The notes: generated by a model not told the origin, from the letters alone. A stretch of DNA of 64,000 nt from Candidatus Yanofskybacteria bacterium RIFCSPHIGHO2_01_FULL_44_24 (GCA_001794215.1 MGJK01000020.1:1016-65015), one strand, 5' to 3'. Positions 3,978 through 48,970 are shown, numbered from the stretch's first letter. Numbers and translations: made by a program.

Positions 3978-4085
3978 AAGAAGTGGCCCAAAGCTTAAGG
4001 CCCCAGATCTAAAGATTTAAACGTTAAGCTTTAAGTGCAATACTAACACGAAATAATAATTTTTGCAATTGCCTAATCGGCCGAT

Positions 4086-4107
4086 CAAAAAGACCCGAAA
4101 AGGGTCT
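4086..4107 (-). terminator. Rho-independent terminator AAAGACCCgaaaaGGGTCTTT + T-run
   Basis: Perfect 8-bp stem. On the minus strand it is followed by TTTTTGAT, directly after the stop of the metalloprotease gene. Confidence 0.6.
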
Positions 4108-4719
4108 TTAGTCCGGTACGGCATTGATATGGGCAATCCGATCGTCGTATTCGGCATTATGATTGACCAGCCGAATAGCCAAAAAAAACAAATAGGGGTG
4201 CTTTCTCAAGAAATTCGTCTTCCGATCGCTTTCTTTTTTTAACTTTTTAACCACAGAGAGAATCCCCGATTTCCCGGCTATTTCCGCGGCACGAACATCA
4301 ACCATCCAATGAGGCCGAAAGTCATCGCCAAATCTCTCCGCCTCTTCCGCATGAGCAAATTCATGAGCCAATAAGCCCGCTAACTCATCAGGGGTAAACT
4401 CAATCAACGCTTTCTCGGTTATGTAAATGCATTTATAAACCCAGAAGTAATAAGCGTTGAGATAATCTGCTTTGAAAACAATGACATAGCACGGATCATG
4501 GATAGACAGCGAGACTTTAAATCTTTTTCTTGCCTCATTAATCTGCTCATAGTATCGGACGACCTGGTCATTATACAACGAAGCGGCCGGGAAATCGGTT
4601 TTATGCTCTTCTGTCTCAAGAAATCCAAGAGCATAAATATTTATAAGAAGAAAACAGCCAAGCAGACCCGCAAAAAAACGAAAAATCATCCGCCCAAGCC
4701 AGTTTTTATCAAAGAACAT
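4108..4719 (-). CDS. Membrane-anchored HExxH zinc metallopeptidase-like protein
   Basis: N-terminal TM helix; LAHEFAH motif followed by EEAERFGDD. Confidence 0.45.
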   Translation of the reverse strand: MFFDKNWLGRMIFRFFAGLLGCFLLINIYALGFLETEEHKTDFPAASLYNDQVVRYYEQINEARKRFKVSLSIHDPCYVIVFKADYLNAYYFWVYKCIYITEKALIEFTPDELAGLLAHEFAHAEEAERFGDDFRPHWMVDVRAAEIAGKSGILSVVKKLKKESDRKTNFLRKHPYLFFLAIRLVNHNAEYDDRIAHINAVPD

Positions 4720-4914: not shown

Positions 4915-7900
4915 TTGAGATTTACTCACCTCCACACCCATTCCCACTATTCACTCTTGGACGGACTCTCGAAAATAGATGAATTAGTGGCTAAAGCCAA
5001 AGAACTGGGAATGGAAGCGCTCGCTCTCACCGATCATGGCGTCATGTATGGCGCCATTGAGTTTTATAAGAAAGCCTCCGCGGCCGGGATCAAACCGATC
5101 ATAGGCTGTGAAATGTATATTTCCGAAAACGGAATGCACGAAAAAAGAACGGGCATAGATGATAAGAGATATCACCTAGTGATATTGGCGGAAAATAATA
5201 CCGGATACAGAAATTTAATCAAACTCGTAACCGCCGCCCACCTTGAGGGCTTCTACTATAAGCCGCGCATTGATAAAGAACTACTGCGCAGCCACTCTGA
5301 GGGCCTCATCGGTCTTTCCGCCTGCCTCGGAGGAGAAATTTCCAGAGCGGTTCTCGCAAAAAACAACGAGAAGGCCAAAAGAGTTGCATTAGAATATCAG
5401 GAGATTTTCGGAAAGGGAAACTTTTATCTTGAGGTTCAACAGCATCACCATATCGAAGAGCAGAATTTTGTCACACCCGAATTAATTAAGATATCAAAGG
5501 AAACCGGAATTCCTTTAGTCGCCACCCAAGACTCGCACTACACCCATACTGAAGACGCTCATGCCCACGATGTTCTGCTTGCGGTTCAAACCGGGAATAA
5601 ATTAGATGACAGCGACCGACTGACAATGAGAGATGATGACTTTTCATTGCTTAACGGAGAAATGATGCACGAAAAATTCAAGAATCTCGATCAGGAGTCA
5701 ATCAGTGAGGCATTTGAAAATACCAACAAGATCGCCGAACGATGCAACGTAAAAATAGACCTTGGCAAAACCCAGCTTCCTAACTTCGAATTGCCTAAAG
5801 GCTATCAATCAAGCGATGAGTATCTTCGAGAATTAAGCTCTGCCGGACTAAAGACGCGGTATGGAGATCAGATTGCCCCAGAAATACTGGACCGGCTGAA
5901 CTACGAGCTGAAAGTCATCAAACAAACGGGATTTGCTTCATATTTCTTAATCGTTCAGGACTTTGTAAACTGGGCGAAGAAAGGGGGTATCGTTGTCGGC
6001 CCGGGACGAGGATCAGCTGCCGGAAGCTTGGTTTCTTACCTACTCAATATAACCAATGTCGACCCGCTGAAATACGGACTGCTGTTTGAAAGGTTTCTAA
6101 ACCCTGAAAGGATTTCAATGCCCGACATAGACCTCGACTTTGATGACGCCAGAAGAAACGAGGTCCTGGAATATGTCGCCGAAAAGTACGGACACGATCA
6201 TTTCGCCCAGATCATAACTTTCGGTACTATGGCTGCCCGCGGCGGAATAAGGGACGCTGGAAGAGCTCTGGGATATTCCTACGATTTCTGCGATCAGATC
6301 GCTAAGATGATCCCCTTCAATCCTAACCAGGGAGAAAAGACCGGCCATCTTAAAAGATGCCTTGAGACCGTTGACGACCTAAGAAACATCTATAACACCA
6401 ACCTTGACGCCAAAAACCTGATAGATTCGGCCATGAAGCTTGAAGGAGTAGCCCGCCATGCCTCCACTCATGCCTGTGCTGTTATCATCACTCCTCAACC
6501 CCTGACCAACTACTTACCCCTTCAGCGCGGCACAAACGAGAGTGACATCATCACCCAATACGAAATGCACGCCGTTGAAGATTTGGGACTTTTAAAAATG
6601 GACTTCCTTGGATTGGCAAACCTGACTATTATCGAAAATACCCTGAAAGAAATAAAAAGAAACCACGGATTAGACCTGAATATCGATTCCATACCCCTTG
6701 ATGACAAAAAAACATATCAGCTTCTCCAAAAAGCCCAAACAACCGGAGTATTCCAATTAGAAAGCTCGGGAATGAAAAAATACCTGAAAGATTTAAAACC
6801 CAGCCAGTTTGAAGATATCGCTCTGATGATCGCTTTATACCGTCCCGGGCCGATGGATCTTATCCCCGAATTCATAGCCCGCAAGCATGGTCAGAGCAAA
6901 GTTACATATCTTCATCCAAGCCTTGAGCCCGTGCTAAACAGCACTTACGGCATTATGGTTTATCAAGAACAGCTTATGGCCGCCGCTCAGGCCTTAGCCG
7001 GCCTTTCACTGGCCCAAGCAGATATCCTTCGAAAGGCGGTAGGTAAAAAAATAAAAACCTTAGTCCAGGAGCAAAAAGACAAGGTTATAAACGGCTGTCT
7101 GAAAAATAACGTAAGGAAAGAGGTAGCTGAGAAATTTTGGCAGCTAATAGAGCCGTTCGATCGATACGGATTCAATAAAAGCCATGCCATCAGCTACGCC
7201 GCCATAGCTTATCAAACCGCCTATCTTAAAGCGCATTACCCCGTGGAATTCATGGCTGCGTTCATGAACAGTGAAACCGGAGACGTAGAGCGGGTGGCCT
7301 TCCTCATTGAGGAATGCAAAGAAATGGGCATCGAAGTCCTTCCCCCGTCTATCAACCACAGTTATGAAAAATTCGCGGTAGTTCCTTCAAACAGTTCCGG
7401 ACAGATGAAGCCGTCAATCAGATTCGGGCTGACGGCCGTTAAAAACGTAGGTGAGAATGTCGTTTCCGCAATTATTCAGGAAAGGGGAGAAAACGGTCCG
7501 TTCAAAGTAATCGATGATTTTATTTCAAGGATAAATAACAAAGACTTGAATAAGAAATCCCTTGAGAGTTTGATCAGATGCGGAGCCCTCGACATATTTG
7601 GAGAGCGCAATACGCTCCTGGCCAACATAGAACAATTGTTATACTACTCCAGGGAAAAACAGAAAAAATCTTCGATGGGCCAAGCCAGCCTCTTTGGAGA
7701 AGTGACGGATACGGAATTACCGCCCCTTCGTCTTGCCATAGCCGAACCGGCTCATAAATGGGAAAAATTATTGTGGGAGAAAGAGTTGTTGGGATTGTTT
7801 GTTTCCGATCACCCTCTCAACAGCTACCAAACTCAGCTTAGACTGGAAAAGGTTACGCCCATAAAGAGTATTTCAATCAATACTCCGGGGCCGATAAAAA

Positions 7901-21177: not shown

Positions 21178-22308
21178 TCACCTCAGCTCCGCTCCAAATT
21201 GTTTGACGGTTTCTTTGTAAATCTTTCCTTGGATAGGATCGATCTCCTCGGTCGTAAGAGTCCTCTCATTAGAACGATAAACGATTCGATAAGTATAGCT
21301 CAGTTTCTCTTTTCCGAATTTTTCGGCATTTTCATATTTATCCAGAAGTTCGACTTGCTCCACTAAGTCCCCTCCTATATGGCGGATCAGATCAAAATAG
21401 TTATTCGGCACGAACGTTTTCTCAACCACAAAAGAAATATCCCGAGTAATGGGCGGAAATTTGGAAACTTCTTTAAATTTATTTCCGAGCTTAAGCTGTT
21501 TCTTCACCCGAGGATCATCGGACCATAATAACCGTATGTCGGGCAGTTCCATGGAAGCCATCGCCAAACGCTCTAATCCAAACCCGAAAGCCCAGCCGTT
21601 ATATCCGGTTACTCCGAAATTTGATAAAACGCTCTTTCTTGGTAAGCCTGATCCGACCATCTCCACCCATTTCCCGTTAATCTCCGCCTCCATCTCGTAG
21701 CTCGGATCGGTATAAGGGAAAGTATGCTCGTAAAAACGGAATTTAATATTTTCTCCAAAAATGCTTTTTCCAATCTTAGAAAGAGTATCTTTCAAATCAT
21801 CCGCCGCAACAGTTTGCTTACTGTCGGGAGCAAGGTAGAGTCCGCCGATCTGGTGAAAAACATTCATGTGGCTACGGTCGATTTCATCCTTTCTGTAGAC
21901 CTTGCCATAACAAACTGCCCCGAAGGATTCGTTTTTATTAATACGCCCTTGAATTTCTGGATGATTCAAATAATAGTACCAGAATGCGGTGTCATGGGTT
22001 CTTAAAACATTTTTCTCGTCAACATAATAAGTGTCCGACTTACTGCGGGCCGGATGACCTTCGGGCATATTAAAAAGATCGAATAGAATTTTTGTCGGAA
22101 TTATTTCCGGTATTTCAACGACATCGAACCCCCTCAGGACGCTTAGGGTCCGGTCGACTATTTCTTTCAAAGGGCTGTCTGAAGTCCGCGACAAGTCGGG
22201 CATATCTAAATACCTCTTTATCCTTCCACTTTCAAAATCACTTCTTTGATTAAGCTTGTCTCTTAGAATATGGGCTTCCTTGGAAACAATTTTGATATAT
22301 TTACCCAT
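21178..22308 (-). CDS. pheS: Monomeric phenylalanyl-tRNA synthetase: PheS catalytic core fused to a C-terminal FDX-ACB-like anticodon-binding domain
   Basis: Class II motifs (FNMPEGHPARSKSDTYY; GFGLERLAMA). The C-terminal ~95 aa (KFPPITRDISFVVEK...YTYRIVYRS) resemble the PheT/mitochondrial FDX-ACB domain. No pheT is adjacent. Confidence 0.8.
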   Translation of the reverse strand: MGKYIKIVSKEAHILRDKLNQRSDFESGRIKRYLDMPDLSRTSDSPLKEIVDRTLSVLRGFDVVEIPEIIPTKILFDLFNMPEGHPARSKSDTYYVDEKNVLRTHDTAFWYYYLNHPEIQGRINKNESFGAVCYGKVYRKDEIDRSHMNVFHQIGGLYLAPDSKQTVAADDLKDTLSKIGKSIFGENIKFRFYEHTFPYTDPSYEMEAEINGKWVEMVGSGLPRKSVLSNFGVTGYNGWAFGFGLERLAMASMELPDIRLLWSDDPRVKKQLKLGNKFKEVSKFPPITRDISFVVEKTFVPNNYFDLIRHIGGDLVEQVELLDKYENAEKFGKEKLSYTYRIVYRSNERTLTTEEIDPIQGKIYKETVKQFGAELR

Positions 22309-22510: not shown

Positions 22511-22532
22511 AGATAGTGGTAGAAATTTACTG

Positions 22533-22812
22533 CGCGGGCGACGGGGCTCGAACCCGCAACCTCATCCGTGCACTTATCTAATATTTTCATATTAGGGTGG
22601 ACTATATCTTGCTCGTGTCTCAATAGAATTAAGATTTAGAGTCTCTGGTATCTAGTCTCTACGGCGCCCCCGCCATAGCGGGGTTCCCACGGTATTACCC
22701 GAGCTTTCGCTGTAGGGCTTCACCGTTATCCCAAAGTTATTCATCTTATAGTTTCCTATAAGAGCTGCGTGACTCCACAGGGATGCGATCTAACCAATTG
22801 ATCTACGCCCGC
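22533..22812 (-). tRNA. tRNA-Asp(GUC) interrupted by a group I intron between positions 35 and 36 (exon 1 22812-22777, exon 2 22570-22533)
   Basis: Spliced sequence: GCGGGCGTAGATCAATTGGTTAGATCGCATCCCTGT|CACGGATGAGGTTGCGGGTTCGAGCCCCGTCGCCCGCG. The cloverleaf is perfect. T-arm GCGGGTTCGAGYCCCGT matches E. coli tRNA-Asp. The discriminator is G73. The anticodon loop is CUGUCAC. CCA is not encoded. Confidence 0.85.
22571..22776 (-). mobile_element. Group I self-splicing intron (IC3 / Azoarcus-like), ~206 nt, with no internal ORF
   Basis: P1 by exon CUGU|G pairing with IGS CGCAG, placing a U.G wobble at the splice site. P2 hairpin CTTATAG-GAAA-CTATAAG. A GCGAAAGC GNRA tetraloop. The conserved GUAGAGACUAGA (J8/7-P7) word. 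The S element AAGATATAGTCC. Terminal G before the 3' splice site. Confidence 0.8.
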
Positions 22813-23564
22813 AATAAATTTTTAAAATAATGCTCAAATATAACCTTTTTTCTGCTTAAATACAACTTCCCGGCATCCTTATACATAAAGTTATATAGAC
22901 CAAAGCTGTCGTTAGAAGAGAAACATAATCGATGACCTTGGGCATAGAATAGAGTCCCTCCCTTAACAACCGCGTACTTTTTTAATACGCCCCAAAGTCC
23001 TTTTAAAAATTTCTTACTTCCTGAGGTAAGGCCGGTTATAATAATTTTGCTTTTATGCTTGCGGTCTTTTTTCTGATATTCCGACGCAGATACATGTCCA
23101 TCACCATCAAAATAGCCTCTTAAAAAATGTGGGGCAAGCGCTCGAGGTATCTTTGGCATTTTTAGAATTAGGCTTTTATTCGGCATAAAGCCCAGACGTA
23201 GAAGATCCTTGAATATCTCCTTGCTTCCAATCTGTATTTGATATGCCTTTTTCCAGTTTTTATTTTGTAAGTTTTTCTTTCTGATATAAATTTTATGATC
23301 AGAGCCTAAACAAAACTTGATCTTCTCAAGAATATCTCGGTCGGTACTATAGAATGCGATAAAATGAGCGCCTCGCTTGTTTTTGATCATATTCCCATCA
23401 GCCGCAAAAAACCCTAAAACATAAGTCATTTCTGGCGACCAATTCTTGAAAAAATCCTCATTCTTAGCTTTAAATACGGGCATTTTACCAATAAATTCTA
23501 CCGCATTTCCGGCAAAATTAAAAGCCCGCATAAAGCGGGCTTTTGAAAATTTTATCTGTCCCAA
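22803..23564 (-). CDS. LAGLIDADG homing endonuclease (double-motif), free-standing, 3' end overlapping the tRNA-Asp 5' end by 10 nt
   Basis: Two LAGLIDADG motifs: LGFFAADGNM and LRGYFDGDGHV. The likely true start is MPVFKAKNEDF at about 23483. The stop TAG lies inside the tRNA acceptor stem. Confidence 0.8.
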   Translation of the reverse strand: MGQIKFSKARFMRAFNFAGNAVEFIGKMPVFKAKNEDFFKNWSPEMTYVLGFFAADGNMIKNKRGAHFIAFYSTDRDILEKIKFCLGSDHKIYIRKKNLQNKNWKKAYQIQIGSKEIFKDLLRLGFMPNKSLILKMPKIPRALAPHFLRGYFDGDGHVSASEYQKKDRKHKSKIIITGLTSGSKKFLKGLWGVLKKYAVVKGGTLFYAQGHRLCFSSNDSFGLYNFMYKDAGKLYLSRKKVIFEHYFKNLLRA

Positions 23565-29827: not shown

Positions 29828-30346
29828 CTATCCCCCTCCTTTTGTCACCCTGATCCTCAGGAACCGGAAGTCCCCACCGGTTCCTGAACCCTGTCCGGTA
29901 ACCTGAAAGTTAGCCCCCGAGATGTTGTCGATATAGGGCGAGGGTGGATTGCCTCCGTCGGCTTCGTACCTTCCTCCATCCAAGACCCTGAGGAGGTACT
30001 CTTTGCCTACTTCGAGAGAAGGAAATACGCACATCCAACTATTACCGGACCCCTTCCACTCAAGAGGATACCTGGATGGACCTGCTGTCGGATAGTAGGG
30101 CCAGGTACACTCCTTGATCCCACTGAATTTGCCCGTGAAAGACATCTCGCCCAGCTCAACAATCGGTCCAAGCGACGGCAGGGCTTCGTAGTTCGGCCTT
30201 GGCCAACTGTACAGAACCGACACATCCACGAACTCTACCGGAGGTGGGGGCGGGGGCGGAGGTGGGGGCGGAGTGGGAGCAACCTTATCGCAGGCTGCCA
30301 CCAATAGAATAGAAAAAATAGCTATTAGAACCCTCTTCTTGGTCAT
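29828..30346 (-). CDS. Lipoprotein with a poly-proline linker
   Basis: Lipobox LVAAC followed by a P13 tract. Confidence 0.5.
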   Translation of the reverse strand: MTKKRVLIAIFSILLVAACDKVAPTPPPPPPPPPPPVEFVDVSVLYSWPRPNYEALPSLGPIVELGEMSFTGKFSGIKECTWPYYPTAGPSRYPLEWKGSGNSWMCVFPSLEVGKEYLLRVLDGGRYEADGGNPPSPYIDNISGANFQVTGQGSGTGGDFRFLRIRVTKGGG

Positions 30347-30497: not shown

Positions 30498-30932
30498 CTA
30501 CCTCCCATTGATAACAATTTTCCTTACCCTAACCGGCTCGTCCTCATACGGATTACTTATATTAGTATAGGCGGTGACCTTGTCGCCCACTCTGAAATAG
30601 TCGGGGCCTACTCCAACCGTTCTCCCGGCCGTAACGCTCAGTATCAAGACATGGGAATCAACTATTATCTTCTTCTCTTTTTTTACGAATTGAGTACCCT
30701 GAGTGGTTCTCTCCACCCAGCCTGTATCTATGACGATATACCCGTCGCCAGCTTCGTTGACGGTCCCGCTCAGAGAACTATTAACGTTCTCAAGGTTTTT
30801 AATTTTCTCAGAGGCTATTTCCGGCCTCGTAAACACATGCCATAGCCTAAATCCTACGAAGATCAAGACCGCTAAAACCAAAGCTATGATAGTGGTCACA
30901 ATATGCACTTTCTGAAGTTTTATGGTATTCAT
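30498..30932 (-). CDS. membrane-anchored hypothetical protein
   Basis: N-terminal TM helix; no motif. Confidence 0.35.
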   Translation of the reverse strand: MNTIKLQKVHIVTTIIALVLAVLIFVGFRLWHVFTRPEIASEKIKNLENVNSSLSGTVNEAGDGYIVIDTGWVERTTQGTQFVKKEKKIIVDSHVLILSVTAGRTVGVGPDYFRVGDKVTAYTNISNPYEDEPVRVRKIVINGR

Positions 30933-30950
30933 ATTTGATTTATACAGACA

Positions 30951-31054
30951 TTAACTTATTATACCAGAAATATCACCCGCCTTCACCCTCTCTTGTTTCG
31001 CCGAATCCCTGTCCCGCACGGTAACCGTATCATCCTCGAGGGTTTGGAAGTCAA
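30951..31054 (-). pseudogene. Displaced duplicate of the glyQS 3' end (82-bp repeat copy A at 30973-31054 plus an alternative tail ...VKAGDISGIIS*)
   Basis: 82 bp is identical to 32032-32113 except for one A/G difference. It is in frame with a TAA at 30951-30953. Confidence 0.6.
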
Positions 31055-31065
31055 TGGCTGGATAT

Positions 31066-31722
31066 TTAATCCAGTATTTCTGTCTTGAATTTCTTAGCCT
31101 CCTCCATGAAAAAATTCTGCCAATCTTGGATCGGTAGATTCTTAATCATTCTCGGATAATCTTCAGCCTCTGTCGCTTTAACGAACTGGGTCCCAAGCTG
31201 GATAAGGTCGAGGTGCCAATCAAATTTGATTCTGGCCTTCTTTATTAGGTCGCTGACTAAATACCCTTTATGCCGACAAATGGAATATAGATCTATAAAA
31301 TCTCGGGCTTTCGTTCTTTGGTATATCGTAAATAATTTATTTACTCCGATATCTAAAATACTGTCTATCGCTAGGTCTTTCTGTTTCTCTCCTCGATCAA
31401 GTCTGGGAAATGGGAAAAAAGTGAATTCTGCCTTCAAGATCTCATTGTCGAAGTGCAGAAAAAATAGGTTTCTGTTATAGCTCTGCTGAAAATCGATTTT
31501 TTTTATCCGCAAATTTTTCTTTATTTGACTGAAAAAAACATTCAAGTTAAAGATATCGAATTCTTTTTCAGAAAAAAAATCCAGATCTTCCGAGTAACGA
31601 TGGTTGAGATAAAAAGCCGCCAGAGCCGTACCTCCGGTAAGATAAAAATTCTCTGTAATGAACCTGTCGCTCCCAATCTTATCAAGAACAGTAATCTGGT
31701 TTTTAGTAAGTATTTCTTTCAC
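31066..31722 (-). CDS. AbiEii-type nucleotidyltransferase (DUF1814 / type IV toxin-antitoxin toxin family)
   Basis: YLTGGTALAAFYLNHRYSEDLDFF matches the AbiEii NTase signature (GGTAL...HRxSxDLDF). Confidence 0.75.
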   Translation of the reverse strand: MKEILTKNQITVLDKIGSDRFITENFYLTGGTALAAFYLNHRYSEDLDFFSEKEFDIFNLNVFFSQIKKNLRIKKIDFQQSYNRNLFFLHFDNEILKAEFTFFPFPRLDRGEKQKDLAIDSILDIGVNKLFTIYQRTKARDFIDLYSICRHKGYLVSDLIKKARIKFDWHLDLIQLGTQFVKATEAEDYPRMIKNLPIQDWQNFFMEEAKKFKTEILD

Positions 31723-31909
31723 CTAAAAGTAGCTTGAGAAATTTCCTGCGATAAGGATCAATGCTGATTCTATCCCAATGTAACTTGAGTTCCGATATTT
31801 TTATTTTCTCGCCACCGGCTCCATAATCAATCATCTGTTCCAGCTTCCAAATACCATATTTCCCCGGATTTTTTGCTAACTCTTTTTCGTTAGTTGACCA
31901 ATTATACAT
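31703..31909 (-). CDS. Small partner ORF of the NTase (candidate antitoxin/regulator), 68 aa, overlapping the NTase start by 20 nt
   Basis: Operonic overlap with the NTase gene and its own promoter. No HTH was recognised, so it may be a minimal or truncated AbiEi-like partner. Confidence 0.4.
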   Translation of the reverse strand: MYNWSTNEKELAKNPGKYGIWKLEQMIDYGAGGEKIKISELKLHWDRISIDPYRRKFLKLLLGERNTY

Positions 31910-31945
31910 GCGTATATTATATCAAAAATCCTTTATTTTGCATAG
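31910..31945 (-). promoter_or_regulatory. Extended -10 promoter TTTTTGATATAATAT ending 6 nt before the ATG of the small ORF (likely leaderless)
   Basis: The minus strand reads ...GGATTTTTGATATAATATACGCATG. The same 15-mer precedes ssrA. Confidence 0.5.
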
Positions 31946-31981
31946 TGCGTTGTTGAGATTGGTCGATCTAAAATTAGCTGC

Positions 31982-33301
31982 TTAGACTTGCTTGATACTG
32001 CGGCTAATAATTTCTTGAAGCTCACCCGCCTTCACCCTCTCTTGTTTCGCCGAATCCCTGTCCCGCACGGTAACCGTATCGTCCTCGAGGGTTTGGAAGT
32101 CAACGGTAAAACACATCGGGGTTCCGATTTCGTCTTGGCTATAATATCGCTTACCAATATTCCCCCTATCGTCCCAAGCGATCGGAAGTAGTGAGTGGTT
32201 AGTAGTAAGTAGTTTGTAGACGGAACGGGCCTTTTCAATTAACTGAGGCTTATTAGCTAATAGTGGAAATACCGCGGCTTTATAGGGAGCGAGCTTGGGA
32301 TGCAATTTGAGAACAACCCTGTCTCCATCTTCATGATAGGCATCACACAAAACAGCAAGAAGTGTCCGATTCAATCCAAATGTGGGTTCGACCACATGCG
32401 GCAGAAATTTTTCTCCCGTGTCTGGATCGGTATAATTCAAGTCTTGGCCGCTTTTTTCCATGTGATTTTTTAAGTCAAAATCGGTTCGATAGGCAAGGCC
32501 GTAAAGTTCTTCCTGGCCAAATGGAAAATCATATTCCAAATCAACAGTACGCTTTGAGTAATGGGCCAGGTCTTTTTTCTCAAACTCGTGAACATTGTTC
32601 TTATTAATACCGAGCATTTCAATCCAGCGATGCATTTCTTTCTTCCACATCTCAAATACATCTTCCCAGTCTGATTCTTTGATAAAATATTCAAACTCCA
32701 TTAGATCAAATTCGCGAGTGCGGAAAATGAAATTTCCCGGCGTGATTTCATTGCGAAAAGCTTTGCCTTGCGACGCAATGCCGAATGGAAGTTTTACACG
32801 GGTAGAATCAAGTATGTTTTTAAAATTTACAAACATCGCCTGAGCAATCTCGCCGCGCAAATATGACTGTGTCGAACTGTCTTCTGATGCCCCCAGACGA
32901 ACCGGGAACATAAGGTTGAATTGTTTGGCTTTAGTGAATTCTTTGTTGCCGCAATTTGGACACTGATCACCGATCTGATCAGCCCGATATCGCTGATGGC
33001 ATTTCTTGCATTCTACAAGCGGATCAGTAAAACCAGAAACATGACCAGAAGCTTCCCAGACCTTAGGATTCATGATAATGGCGGCATCAATGCCGACCAT
33101 GTCGTCCCGACTTTGAACAAAATGCTTCCACCAGAGTTGTTGAATATTATTCTTTAGTTCAACGCCCAACGGCCCGTAATCCCAAGAATTGGCCAACCCG
33201 CCGTAAATTTCCGACCCGGGAAATATAAATCCCCTCCTCTTACAGAGACTGACGATCTTCTCGAGCAGGTTATCCTGATTGTTGTTCTTAATATTCTGCA
33301 T
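31982..33301 (-). CDS. glyQS: Glycyl-tRNA synthetase (alpha2, GlyQS type)
   Basis: N-terminus MQNIKNN...KRRGFIFPGSEIYGGLANSWDYGPLGVELKNN, class II motifs and an anticodon-binding C-terminus. The 3' end contains repeat copy B (32032-32113). Confidence 0.9.
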   Translation of the reverse strand: MQNIKNNNQDNLLEKIVSLCKRRGFIFPGSEIYGGLANSWDYGPLGVELKNNIQQLWWKHFVQSRDDMVGIDAAIIMNPKVWEASGHVSGFTDPLVECKKCHQRYRADQIGDQCPNCGNKEFTKAKQFNLMFPVRLGASEDSSTQSYLRGEIAQAMFVNFKNILDSTRVKLPFGIASQGKAFRNEITPGNFIFRTREFDLMEFEYFIKESDWEDVFEMWKKEMHRWIEMLGINKNNVHEFEKKDLAHYSKRTVDLEYDFPFGQEELYGLAYRTDFDLKNHMEKSGQDLNYTDPDTGEKFLPHVVEPTFGLNRTLLAVLCDAYHEDGDRVVLKLHPKLAPYKAAVFPLLANKPQLIEKARSVYKLLTTNHSLLPIAWDDRGNIGKRYYSQDEIGTPMCFTVDFQTLEDDTVTVRDRDSAKQERVKAGELQEIISRSIKQV

Positions 33302-48604: not shown

Positions 48605-48970
48605 GGGGATGTCGGGCTTCGACGAAGCTTACGACCGATAAATGCTGGGGGTGGCATGATCGTTCAGCCACGGAAATCACATCCGATCAATTGAATAGGT
48701 GCCAAAAATTCACCTAATTACGCTTTCGCCTAACATCGTTTAGGTAAGCCATTCCACCGCGGTGTCTACTGGCGGATCATGGAGTGTCATATTGTAGACT
48801 GGACAGTTTTCGTTTTTTTTCTTCCGGAGGCTGTTGAATAAATTAAAAGAAATAGCCGTAGATTATTTTGTCGGTTTTCTACTTTACGGCGAAAGACTAA
48901 ATCGTCTATCTCGGTACACATTTATCGGTATAACTTTCGGACGTGGATTCAACTTCCACCATCTCCACCA
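48605..48970 (+). ncRNA. ssrA: tmRNA (SsrA), one-piece, ~366 nt; tag peptide AKNSPNYAFA
   Basis: 5' GGGGAUGUCGGGCUUCGACG fits the tmRNA 5' consensus. 3' GGACGUGGAUUCAACUUCCACCAUCUCCACCA matches the E. coli 3' end GGACGCGGGUUCAACUCCCGCCAGCUCCACCA. Resume codon GCC at 48701; reading frame GCC AAA AAT TCA CCT AAT TAC GCT TTC GCC TAA with the stop in a hairpin. Confidence 0.9.

Follow-up and report, generated by a model that had tools for sequence, protein, structure and literature searches.

MenAT1 of Mycobacterium tuberculosis is a toxin–antitoxin pair in which MenT1 (Rv0078A) is a DUF1814 tRNA nucleotidyltransferase and MenA1 (Rv0078B) is an antitoxin of only 68 amino acids (aa) (PMC10435456). 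MenT1 and MenT3 are switched off by their antitoxins through a serine or threonine that acts as phospho-acceptor (PMC10435456, PMC11375011), and the same phosphorylation mechanism has been reported for AbiEii (bioRxiv 10.64898/2026.01.19.700257). A separate body of work deals with the displaced, orphan 3' ends of genes found in Rhs loci and in the effector–immunity arrays of the type VI secretion system (T6SS); these have been explained by homology-facilitated illegitimate recombination, in which a conserved gene segment serves as the anchor for incoming DNA, whose other end is then joined illegitimately (PMC5361080). Natural transformation can also make tandem duplications by bridging sister chromatids (PMC3784515). 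In this work we have analysed 64,000 nucleotides (nt) of DNA, the whole of which is called the window below, from Candidatus Yanofskybacteria bacterium RIFCSPHIGHO2_01_FULL_44_24 (GCA_001794215.1, MGJK01000020.1:1016-65015), a genome from Rifle groundwater. Here a two-gene cassette, encoding a nucleotidyltransferase and a small partner protein, stands between the 3' end of glyQS, the gene of glycyl-tRNA synthetase (GlyRS), and a second, truncated copy of that end. On balance we lean towards the reading that the cassette is a toxin–antitoxin module, as judged by homology, and that recombination within glyQS displaced one of two gene ends, an event which would have recurred in the cassette family. 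The host belongs to the Patescibacteria (candidate phyla radiation, CPR), whose genomes are tiny and tightly packed and whose routes of gene gain are poorly understood.

The locus lies entirely on the minus strand, where the order from 5' to 3' is glyQS, an open reading frame (ORF) of 68 aa, an ORF of 218 aa, repeat copy A, the codons for DISGIIS with their stop, and a gene of 144 aa. The features are as follows.

31982-33301, minus strand: glyQS, glycine--tRNA ligase of 439 aa, intact, with the Pfam domains tRNA-synt_2b and HGTP_anticodon
32022-32103, minus strand: repeat copy B, within glyQS, encoding VDFQTLEDDTVTVRDRDSAKQERVKAG, identical to copy A at 81 of 82 positions
31985-32021, minus strand: tail B, the functional C-terminal end of glyQS, encoding ELQEIISRSIKQV, with the glyQS stop codon at 31982-31984
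31916-31924, minus strand: extended -10 promoter element TGATATAAT, from reading the sequence
31703-31909, minus strand: gene of the 68-aa partner (MYNWS family), putative antitoxin or regulator of the nucleotidyltransferase
31066-31722, minus strand: gene of the 218-aa DUF1814/AbiEii-type nucleotidyltransferase (PF08843), putative toxin, GTG start
30973-31054, minus strand: repeat copy A, a 5'-truncated second glyQS segment, starting 11 nt past the toxin stop codon
30951-30972, minus strand: tail A, DISGIIS and stop, continuing the frame of copy A, with the stop codon at 30951-30953
30498-30932, minus strand: gene of a predicted membrane protein of 144 aa, from the ORF listing, the right-hand boundary of the insertion

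The exact GlyRS protein of the window is on record as a glycine--tRNA ligase of Candidatus Yanofskybacteria. The direct repeat of 82 nt has a single mismatch, which is far above chance; the differing base (T at 31032, C at 32081 on the coding strand) is synonymous, GAT and GAC, and in a repeat search the pair could be extended to 85 nt with two mismatches. The copies are spaced 1049 nt start to start, and the insert between them, of 1,049 bp and low G+C content (GC), holds two ORFs only, which overlap by 20 nt. An earlier note on this DNA, made from the sequence alone, had described an 82-bp repeat with one mismatch, a 68-aa and an overlapping 218-aa ORF between its copies, and a copy A that runs in frame into a short C-terminus of its own, and all of this we find as well, at the positions given above. 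The same note had placed the other copy at 32032-32113, as the last 82 bp of glyQS, whereas it in fact occupies 32022-32103 and is followed by 37 coding nt (13 codons) and the stop before glyQS ends. Copy A is out of frame with the toxin gene, and the next gene has its ATG, at 30932, 18 nt past the stop after DISGIIS. The 144-aa protein encoded there had no family matches in Pfam and NCBIfam scans, and an Rfam scan of the cassette and repeat region likewise returned nothing. A hairpin at the toxin stop (31057-31075) was considered as a feature of the cassette and rejected, as other cassettes have no such hairpin.

The larger cassette protein could be placed readily. It matched Pfam PF08843 (AbiEii) over residues 18-197 with E = 7.2e-18 and 65.8 bits (cut-off 22.5), as well as 21 AbiEii models of PADLOC. 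An AlphaFold2 model built on 29 homologues reached a predicted local distance difference test (pLDDT) score of 91.4 and a predicted template modelling (pTM) score of 0.88, and agrees with a Pol-beta-type nucleotidyltransferase core joined to the C-terminal helical part of the family. When it was compared with the PDB by Foldseek, the best matches were JHP933 of Helicobacter pylori (4ok0/4o8s, E = 4e-8, TM 0.6), TglT/MenT3 (6j7n) and MenT1 (8an4). Residues G30, G31, S44, D46, D48, K129, R140, D141 and D144 are invariant in the family alignment of 29 sequences; the catalytic G[GS]...DxD motif is LTGGTALAAFYLNHRYSEDLDFF (GG...YSEDLDF) and aligns with SEDLDF of JHP933, and the motif GGTALAAFYLNHRYSEDLDFF given for this protein in the earlier note is present. 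Ser44 stands two residues ahead of the catalytic Asp46, which is the phospho-acceptor position of MenT1 (T39/D41) and MenT3 (S78). Judged by its sequence and its modelled structure, the 218-aa protein is a DUF1814/AbiEii-type nucleotidyltransferase and an ordinary member of a known toxin family. Pfam, PADLOC and the predicted fold thus agree with the identity first proposed for it, and the possibility, raised at the same time, that the nucleotidyltransferase fold might be missing is removed by a confident model which matches JHP933, MenT3 and MenT1.

What, then, is the 68-aa protein? It had no matches in Pfam and NCBIfam and none among the sequences of solved structures, and against PADLOC it gave only a non-significant match (E = 0.029), to an AbiEii model. 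Its predicted structure consists of four short helices, at moderate confidence, and has no significant structural neighbours; similarity to MenA1 is undetectable. The protein is nevertheless strongly conserved, with an invariant MYNWS N-terminus and invariant W21, L23, E24, Q25 and G30 in 29 close homologues. When the family was searched for exhaustively with a profile, 244 representatives of 50%-identity clusters were obtained, nearly all of 60-90 aa, and an indexed search for the toxin found more than 7,000 homologues. In 80 related loci (L016-L095), which we fetched from species-representative genomes, the toxin gene is directly preceded by a gene of this family in 80 out of 80, and in one protein of 282 aa (P0291) the MYNWS small protein and the nucleotidyltransferase are naturally fused. 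Two shorter proteins, P0386 and P0415, have the N-terminus of the small protein joined to only the C-terminal part of the enzyme, and all three may be fused or degenerate toxin–antitoxin variants. From these comparisons the 68-aa partner appears as a new, widespread and unannotated family which is paired with a known toxin family and for which a functional analogue is known. That it neutralises the toxin is suggested by the gene order, the strict co-occurrence and the MenAT1 precedent. AbiEi (COG5340) was not detected for the 68-aa gene in the Pfam, NCBIfam and PADLOC scans, and the insert has no further ORF; because AbiEi is absent, the module is, as far as its sequence tells, not a canonical AbiE system, nor is it one under what we take to be PADLOC's two-gene definition. 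The earlier description of a toxin–antitoxin or abortive-infection module accordingly holds for the compact two-gene cassette and does not hold for the AbiE system proper. The companion suggestion, that a partner far smaller than AbiEi makes the pairing possibly novel, is borne out in that the family is unannotated, is not AbiEi and has no DNA-binding domain; small size as such has a precedent in the 68 aa of MenA1.

The cassette seems to bring its own promoter. The hexamer of TGATATAAT ends 6 nt ahead of the start codon of the 68-aa ORF, which lacks a Shine-Dalgarno sequence. Over 71 related cassettes the promoter consensus is AAAATnTGnTATAATnnnnnTATG; the distance from the end of the -10 hexamer to the ATG is exactly 6 nt in 37 of these, and only 5 have a Shine-Dalgarno-like motif. 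The mRNA is thus probably leaderless and made from an extended -10 promoter, as had been proposed before from the spacing alone; both the geometry of TGATATAAT and the consensus favour this. Over the same 71 cassettes the limits of conservation are sharp, from about -21 to the toxin stop, and nothing farther upstream is conserved.

Both ends of glyQS were compared with those of relatives. Among 120 GlyRS proteins listed, 112 have a locatable C-terminal motif, and the sequence past RDRDxxxQER in these follows x-x-x-x-(E/D)-(L/I)-x-x-hydrophobic-hydrophobic (pattern [ED][LIV]xx[FYILV][ILV]); the tails range from 4 to 27 residues with a mode of 15-16. Tail B (VKAG-ELQEIISRSIKQV) is 17 residues long, which is typical, and tail A (VKAG-DISGIIS), of 11 residues, is among the shorter ones and still fits the pattern, for which the probability by chance is about 0.002. 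Because both fit the C-terminal pattern, both tails are, on the sequence comparison, genuine GlyRS ends, and the proposal that copy A with its short C-terminus represents an alternative or displaced end of glyQS agrees with this. The two tails are identical at only 9 of 21 aligned nt (12 differ) as against 81 of 82 in the core (Fisher p = 2e-9). The closest relative that we found, at locus L096, has a GlyRS 88% identical to that of the window and shares the upstream synteny (IleRS ... RecO, a DUF11-type protein, glyQS), and its glyQS has a single end, no cassette and differing downstream genes. Since the orthologous core in L096 is only about 82% identical to the window core, the two core copies would appear to be of the same lineage or to have been homogenised. 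Between the core and the conserved cassette boundary there are 91 nt, consisting of tail B and a short downstream stretch, which are not conserved among cassettes. In this stretch AGATCGACCAATC, 13 nt starting 12 nt past the tail B stop, matches at 12 of 13 positions the sequence after glyQS in L096 (offset 15 nt, shuffle p = 0.015), and the cassette therefore seems to be preceded by glyQS-type sequence that lies outside the conserved cassette. We favour recombination over simple duplication because the core (81/82) and the tails (9/21) contrast so strongly, because both tails look like genuine GlyRS ends and because the 91 nt appear to be derived from glyQS.

The remnant itself may be of use to the cell. 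Tail A holds a perfect extended -10 element, TGGTATAAT, at 30958-30966 on the minus strand (from reading the sequence), and the 144-aa gene has a TATAAA (within 30933-30946) whose end is 6 nt away from the start codon, the spacing also found in the promoter of the cassette. Leaderless genes may be common in this genome, and the remnant probably carries the promoter of the downstream gene, which would explain why it has been retained.

Is the arrangement peculiar to this locus? We looked for direct duplications whose downstream copy starts within 70 nt of the toxin stop, for which 68 of the 80 loci were testable, and took position-shifted controls from the same loci (n=264). Such a duplication was seen in 15/68 loci and in 3/264 controls (p = 6e-9), about 20-fold above the controls. 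One of the 15, L027, is a false positive caused by paralogues, and without it the count is 14/68 (p = 3e-8); the duplications in L017 and L027 were rejected as insertion footprints, being paralogous secreted-protein motifs. The repeats are locus-specific and unrelated in sequence between loci, and their length goes from 17 to about 145 nt, and in two loci a whole gene is duplicated. The copies are at 5764/6661 in L018, 1739/2667 in L028, 5578/6657 in L036, 5609/6674 in L059, 4874/6666 in L062, 5626/6668 in L074 and 5755/6652 in L081. The duplicated targets, which we named by reading translations and not by a family-library scan, include the 3' ends of co-oriented upstream genes for a SpoU methyltransferase, ksgA, rplT (L20), rpsA (S1, in two species), an ABC transporter, probably a methionyl-tRNA synthetase (read from its C-terminus) and a surface protein; a convergent gene, rpsJ, is duplicated at its 3' end and atpG at its 5' end, and one or two of the targets are promoter regions. 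Housekeeping genes of other Patescibacteria (SpoU, ksgA, rplT, rpsA, rpsJ, atpG) make up most of the targets. Conserved termini, inverted repeats or extra genes were not seen alongside the related cassettes. The association of this cassette family with duplicated gene ends has, as far as our literature searches show, not been described so far; only the analogous T6SS and transformation cases were found.

In L028 the tail that comes after a near-perfect core resembles its counterpart as protein and has diverged from it as DNA, as in the window, and in L081 a perfect 24-nt core is followed by tails that are only marginally alike (9/27 nt). The copies in L059 differ at 42/126 coding positions, distributed 9/5/28 over the three codon positions and without an indel or a stop, and the mismatches between the copies in L062 fall 1/1/12; that both copies decayed in a purely neutral way is rejected by a codon-position test (p = 1e-5). 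The S1 remnant of L059 is 68% identical to its own gene, which leaves it no nearer to that gene than to the one of another species. By contrast, the S1 remnant of L041 and its own gene agree at 86%, against about 70% in every other comparison, which suggests gene conversion. Since the host gene (75%) and the cassette (67-76%) have diverged in step between the two S1-linked loci, this insertion seems to be old and vertically inherited.

Other members of the family were met in further settings. In Candidatus Niyogibacteria (L116-L125, AbiEii at 4001-4660) the last 8 nt of the toxin gene are shared with the start of rplO, directly upstream of secY, so that the cassette is wedged into a ribosomal-protein operon without a spacer. 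Close homologues outside Patescibacteria are those of L106-L115, L034, L063, L064, L071 and L094; one lies between the genes of a type IIG restriction-modification enzyme and an acyl-CoA dehydrogenase in an LptD-bearing organism, and the bins of others bear the labels Acidobacteria, Bacteroidota and Omnitrophota. Transfer of the cassette between phyla is implied, provided that this binning is correct.

The scheme that we propose has a biochemical and a historical side. By homology with MenT1, MenT3 and AbiEii, the enzyme would add nucleotides to the 3' ends of tRNA and thereby block translation, and the small protein would bind and silence it, either by obstructing the active site or by making the enzyme auto-phosphorylate on Ser44. 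The cassette would have come on DNA that already bore a glyQS 3' tail, and this incoming DNA would have recombined within the conserved 82-nt segment of glyQS. The route may have been homology-facilitated illegitimate recombination, possibly with bridging of sister chromatids, or else a Campbell-type crossover; sister-chromatid bridging would make both cores recipient-derived and hence identical, with the tail beside the module being foreign. As the outcome, glyQS would end in one tail (ELQEIISRSIKQV), and a 5'-truncated copy (82 nt and DISGIIS with its stop) would have been pushed downstream of the cassette, where it could be kept as the promoter carrier of the next gene. Which of the tails was there first? 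Because the layout is that of a displaced end, we take tail A to be the displaced resident, with a confidence hardly better than even.

The composition and the flanks of the insert give partial help with its history. Its GC is 0.364, compared with 0.441 for the window; 73/75 related loci show the same offset, and the GC of the cassette rises and falls with that of its host (r = 0.8). For these reasons the low GC is partly a property of the family and not proof of recent arrival. The glyQS of the window (31982-33301) is a mosaic when set against that of L096 (6001-7287): the middle is at 85-88% identity, with codons 100-300 at 85-87% (third positions 0.64-0.71), whereas identity falls to 64-72% (third positions 0.35-0.44) over the first 100 codons and the last 140, which suggests past recombination inside the gene. 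The mosaic is no evidence of a foreign 3' part of glyQS, the identities of the two ends being at the genome-wide level of about 65-70% (IleRS, RecO). Another GlyRS, P0166 (source SRC, SRR3989344), is 77% identical overall to that of the window, and its last approximately 135 residues, tail B included, are 100% identical with the rest at about 70%. The record has no contig. Its source 'SRC' is, we assume, a protein-level assembly of soil metagenomes, and P0166 may reflect a recent transfer of the 3' part of glyQS between lineages or be a chimera of protein-level assembly.

Several observations weigh against displacement by recombination as we have described it. Tail B has the usual length and is followed by the motif shared with L096, so it could be the functional end that is ancestral, with the downstream copy having come in. 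A near-identical core beside diverged tails needs an extra assumption, such as a crossover at the edge, two recipient-derived cores or later conversion, and the codon-position bias in the related loci is compatible with one selected and one decaying copy, that is, with an old in-situ duplication. The search in related genomes for an empty site, where glyQS with a single segment is followed directly by the gene at 30932, as the earlier note had advised, found none within the species by four routes: the empty junction was not found as a DNA pattern in metagenome contigs; the GlyRS with tail A that such a site predicts was absent in an exact-sequence look-up; all contigs with the exact 144-aa protein either have the cassette upstream or are broken at the repeat, so that no empty allele was found among them; and scanning metagenome contigs with the protein of the downstream gene gave no confirmed case. 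L096 is an empty site at roughly the genus level only. Neither an excision junction nor a circular form was found in the same contig searches; a Logan contig of 1050 bp, considered as a circular or excised form, was rejected, its ends being those of a k = 31 unitig delimited by the exactly shared 59-nt part of the repeat. Nor was any cassette of the family found in two genomic contexts, the widely sampled homologues P0016 and P0044 each having a single fixed context across many samples. A family alignment search of viral contigs gave no matches, and neither did a search of GenBank phages with the 218-aa protein; on plasmids, the search with this protein yielded no more than two AbiEii homologues, both from Campylobacter and distant at 34% identity. 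The cassette does not adjoin glyQS in any of the 80 related loci, and searches of the insert ORFs and of the repeats revealed no transposase, integrase or inverted repeats at the ends. The cassettes are stable residents that are not visibly jumping now. The earlier claim of acquisition by recombination is plausible, though neither an empty site nor an excised form was found; the cassette is absent from the glyQS locus of the closest relative and has a lower GC than its surroundings.

Could the repeats instead be target-site duplications? This would require a discrete element of about 0.87 kb, cuts of variable stagger, an exact 82-nt duplication and a tail B carried by the element. Elsewhere in the family many of the locus-specific repeats are short and free of mismatches (L018 and L081, 23-24 nt at 100%), the spacing is exactly 897 nt in three loci, the downstream copy begins 0-21 nt past the toxin stop in most, and the conserved unit is sharply limited from -21 to the stop, all of which speaks for such a process. 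It would, however, have to act without a transposase, terminal repeats or conserved ends, and repeats of 17 to more than 140 nt do not resemble the work of a transposase with a fixed stagger. Since tail B, moreover, is a true GlyRS end with glyQS-type sequence after it, the element would have needed to bring a piece of another glyQS. The terminator hairpins between host gene and cassette are single-copy only (L036, L059, L074). We consider this account unlikely, if the best of the alternatives.

A history in which glyQS was partly duplicated in situ long ago, independently of the arrival of the cassette, with gene conversion homogenising the 82-nt core while the tails drifted, seems to us improbable. 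Conversion does seem to occur, to judge by the L041 remnant (86% against about 70% otherwise), and the S1 insertion seemingly predates the split of two species. Nevertheless tail A keeps the pattern of a GlyRS end, which random decay would not leave, the roughly 20-fold association with cassette boundaries argues that duplication and cassette are not independent, and a conversion tract ending exactly at the left edge of the remnant is awkward. Slightly poorer still are the chances of an integrative element whose attL and attR are the 82-nt pair, with a recombinase acting in trans and a replacement 3' end supplied by the element, as in islands at tRNA genes or guaA. An identical core, a tail borne by the element, a displaced native tail and a sharp boundary of identity are what it predicts; yet the 1,049 bp hold no integrase, the repeats elsewhere are unrelated in sequence and length and so offer no common att site, and neither an excised circle nor an empty site was found in contig and protein searches. 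A collapsed or chimeric repeat, a general risk of metagenome-assembled genomes with nothing further to recommend it here, and one which the earlier note had itself raised, is scarcely credible, because the identical two-repeat arrangement is present in more than 20 contigs from independent assemblies, of differing samples, assemblers and k-mer sizes (among them NCBI GCA_001794475.1 and GCA_001795655.1, JGI 3300002502, several ENA contigs made by MEGAHIT with k141 and Logan), the MEGAHIT k = 141 is longer than the 82-nt repeat, and the copies are kept apart by a fixed single-nucleotide difference.

If displacement by recombination within glyQS is accepted, a more general picture may be sketched, which we offer tentatively and regard as open to considerable doubt. 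The operon of about 0.9 kb could be a minimal selfish module of Patescibacteria and some other uncultured phyla, which has no recombinase of its own, travels on transforming DNA, is anchored in the end of a neighbouring and often essential gene, leaves a partial duplicate of that gene end behind, and is fixed by its addictive pair of genes and by the promoter in the remnant; its small protein would then be a new class of DUF1814 antitoxin. The window and the 15/68 loci would represent, at the level of sequence, a footprint of gene gain beside essential genes without a dedicated mobility enzyme. Were it true that remnants persist as promoters of downstream genes, this would provide a simple rule for the survival of insertions in compact genomes. 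The partner family of about 65 aa, large and unannotated, is perhaps also a candidate for the antitoxin-induced auto-phosphorylation recently proposed for MenT and AbiEii.

Some other features of the window deserve mention. A group I intron (Rfam) at 22578-22788 on the minus strand interrupts what appears to be a tRNA gene (22522-22812), with GCGGGCGTAGATCAATTGGTTAGATCGCATCC as its 5' half and GGATGAGGTTGCGGGTTCGAGCCCCGTCGCCCGCGCA as its 3' half, for which ARAGORN made no call; this locus is directly preceded by an ORF of the LAGLIDADG type (22803-23564) and followed by pheS (21178-22308). ARAGORN called a single tRNA-like gene in the 64 kb, that of tmRNA (48605-48970, plus strand), whose tag peptide is AKNSPNYAFA followed by a stop. 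A predicted lipoprotein of 172 aa (29828-30346, minus strand) has a run of 12 prolines after the cysteine of its signal peptide and no family matches; it is part of a block of large surface-protein genes (SdrD_B, PKD) that is wholly unlike the region downstream of glyQS in the nearest relative.

How does the locus compare with the systems described so far? For the gene pair, MenAT1 is the nearest functional precedent. Both are two-gene operons with a DUF1814-fold enzyme and an upstream helical partner of 68 aa that has no DNA-binding domain, and in both a serine or threonine stands two residues before the catalytic aspartate (S44-E-D46 here, T39/D41 in MenT1; PMC10435456, PMC11375011), whereas homology between the 68-aa partner and MenA1 is not detectable. 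With AbiE (type IV, recently proposed as type VII) the pair shares a toxin of the PF08843/PADLOC AbiEii type, bicistronic overlap and an antitoxin gene that comes first, but it lacks AbiEi (COG5340, a winged helix with a C-terminal domain), the upstream gene encoding 68 aa only. Of the traits of toxin–antitoxin modules in general it has conserved adjacency (80/80), the 20-nt overlap, a conserved promoter and a natural fusion (P0291). For the arrangement, transposons that duplicate their target differ in having a transposase, conserved or inverted termini and a fixed length of duplication, which here varies from 17 to more than 140 nt. Genomic islands at the 3' ends of genes have in common with the window the flanking direct repeats, restoration of the gene by the insert and a lower GC of the insert; the insert of the window, however, is 1 kb without an integrase, the sequence and length of the repeat vary from locus to locus, and an excision product was not found. 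In structure the locus resembles the orphan ends of Rhs, contact-dependent inhibition (CDI) and T6SS loci, where an incoming module, led by a homologous segment, replaces the 3' end of the gene and the resident 3' end is shifted downstream, together with the conserved stretch, and kept (PMC5361080). The window differs from these in that the gene which is split is an essential housekeeping gene, the tail is a helix of 7-13 residues and not a toxin domain, and the module is an unrelated toxin–antitoxin pair and not a cognate immunity gene. Nevertheless, its order of gene, core, first tail, module, core and second tail is the displaced-end architecture of the T6SS and Rhs loci.

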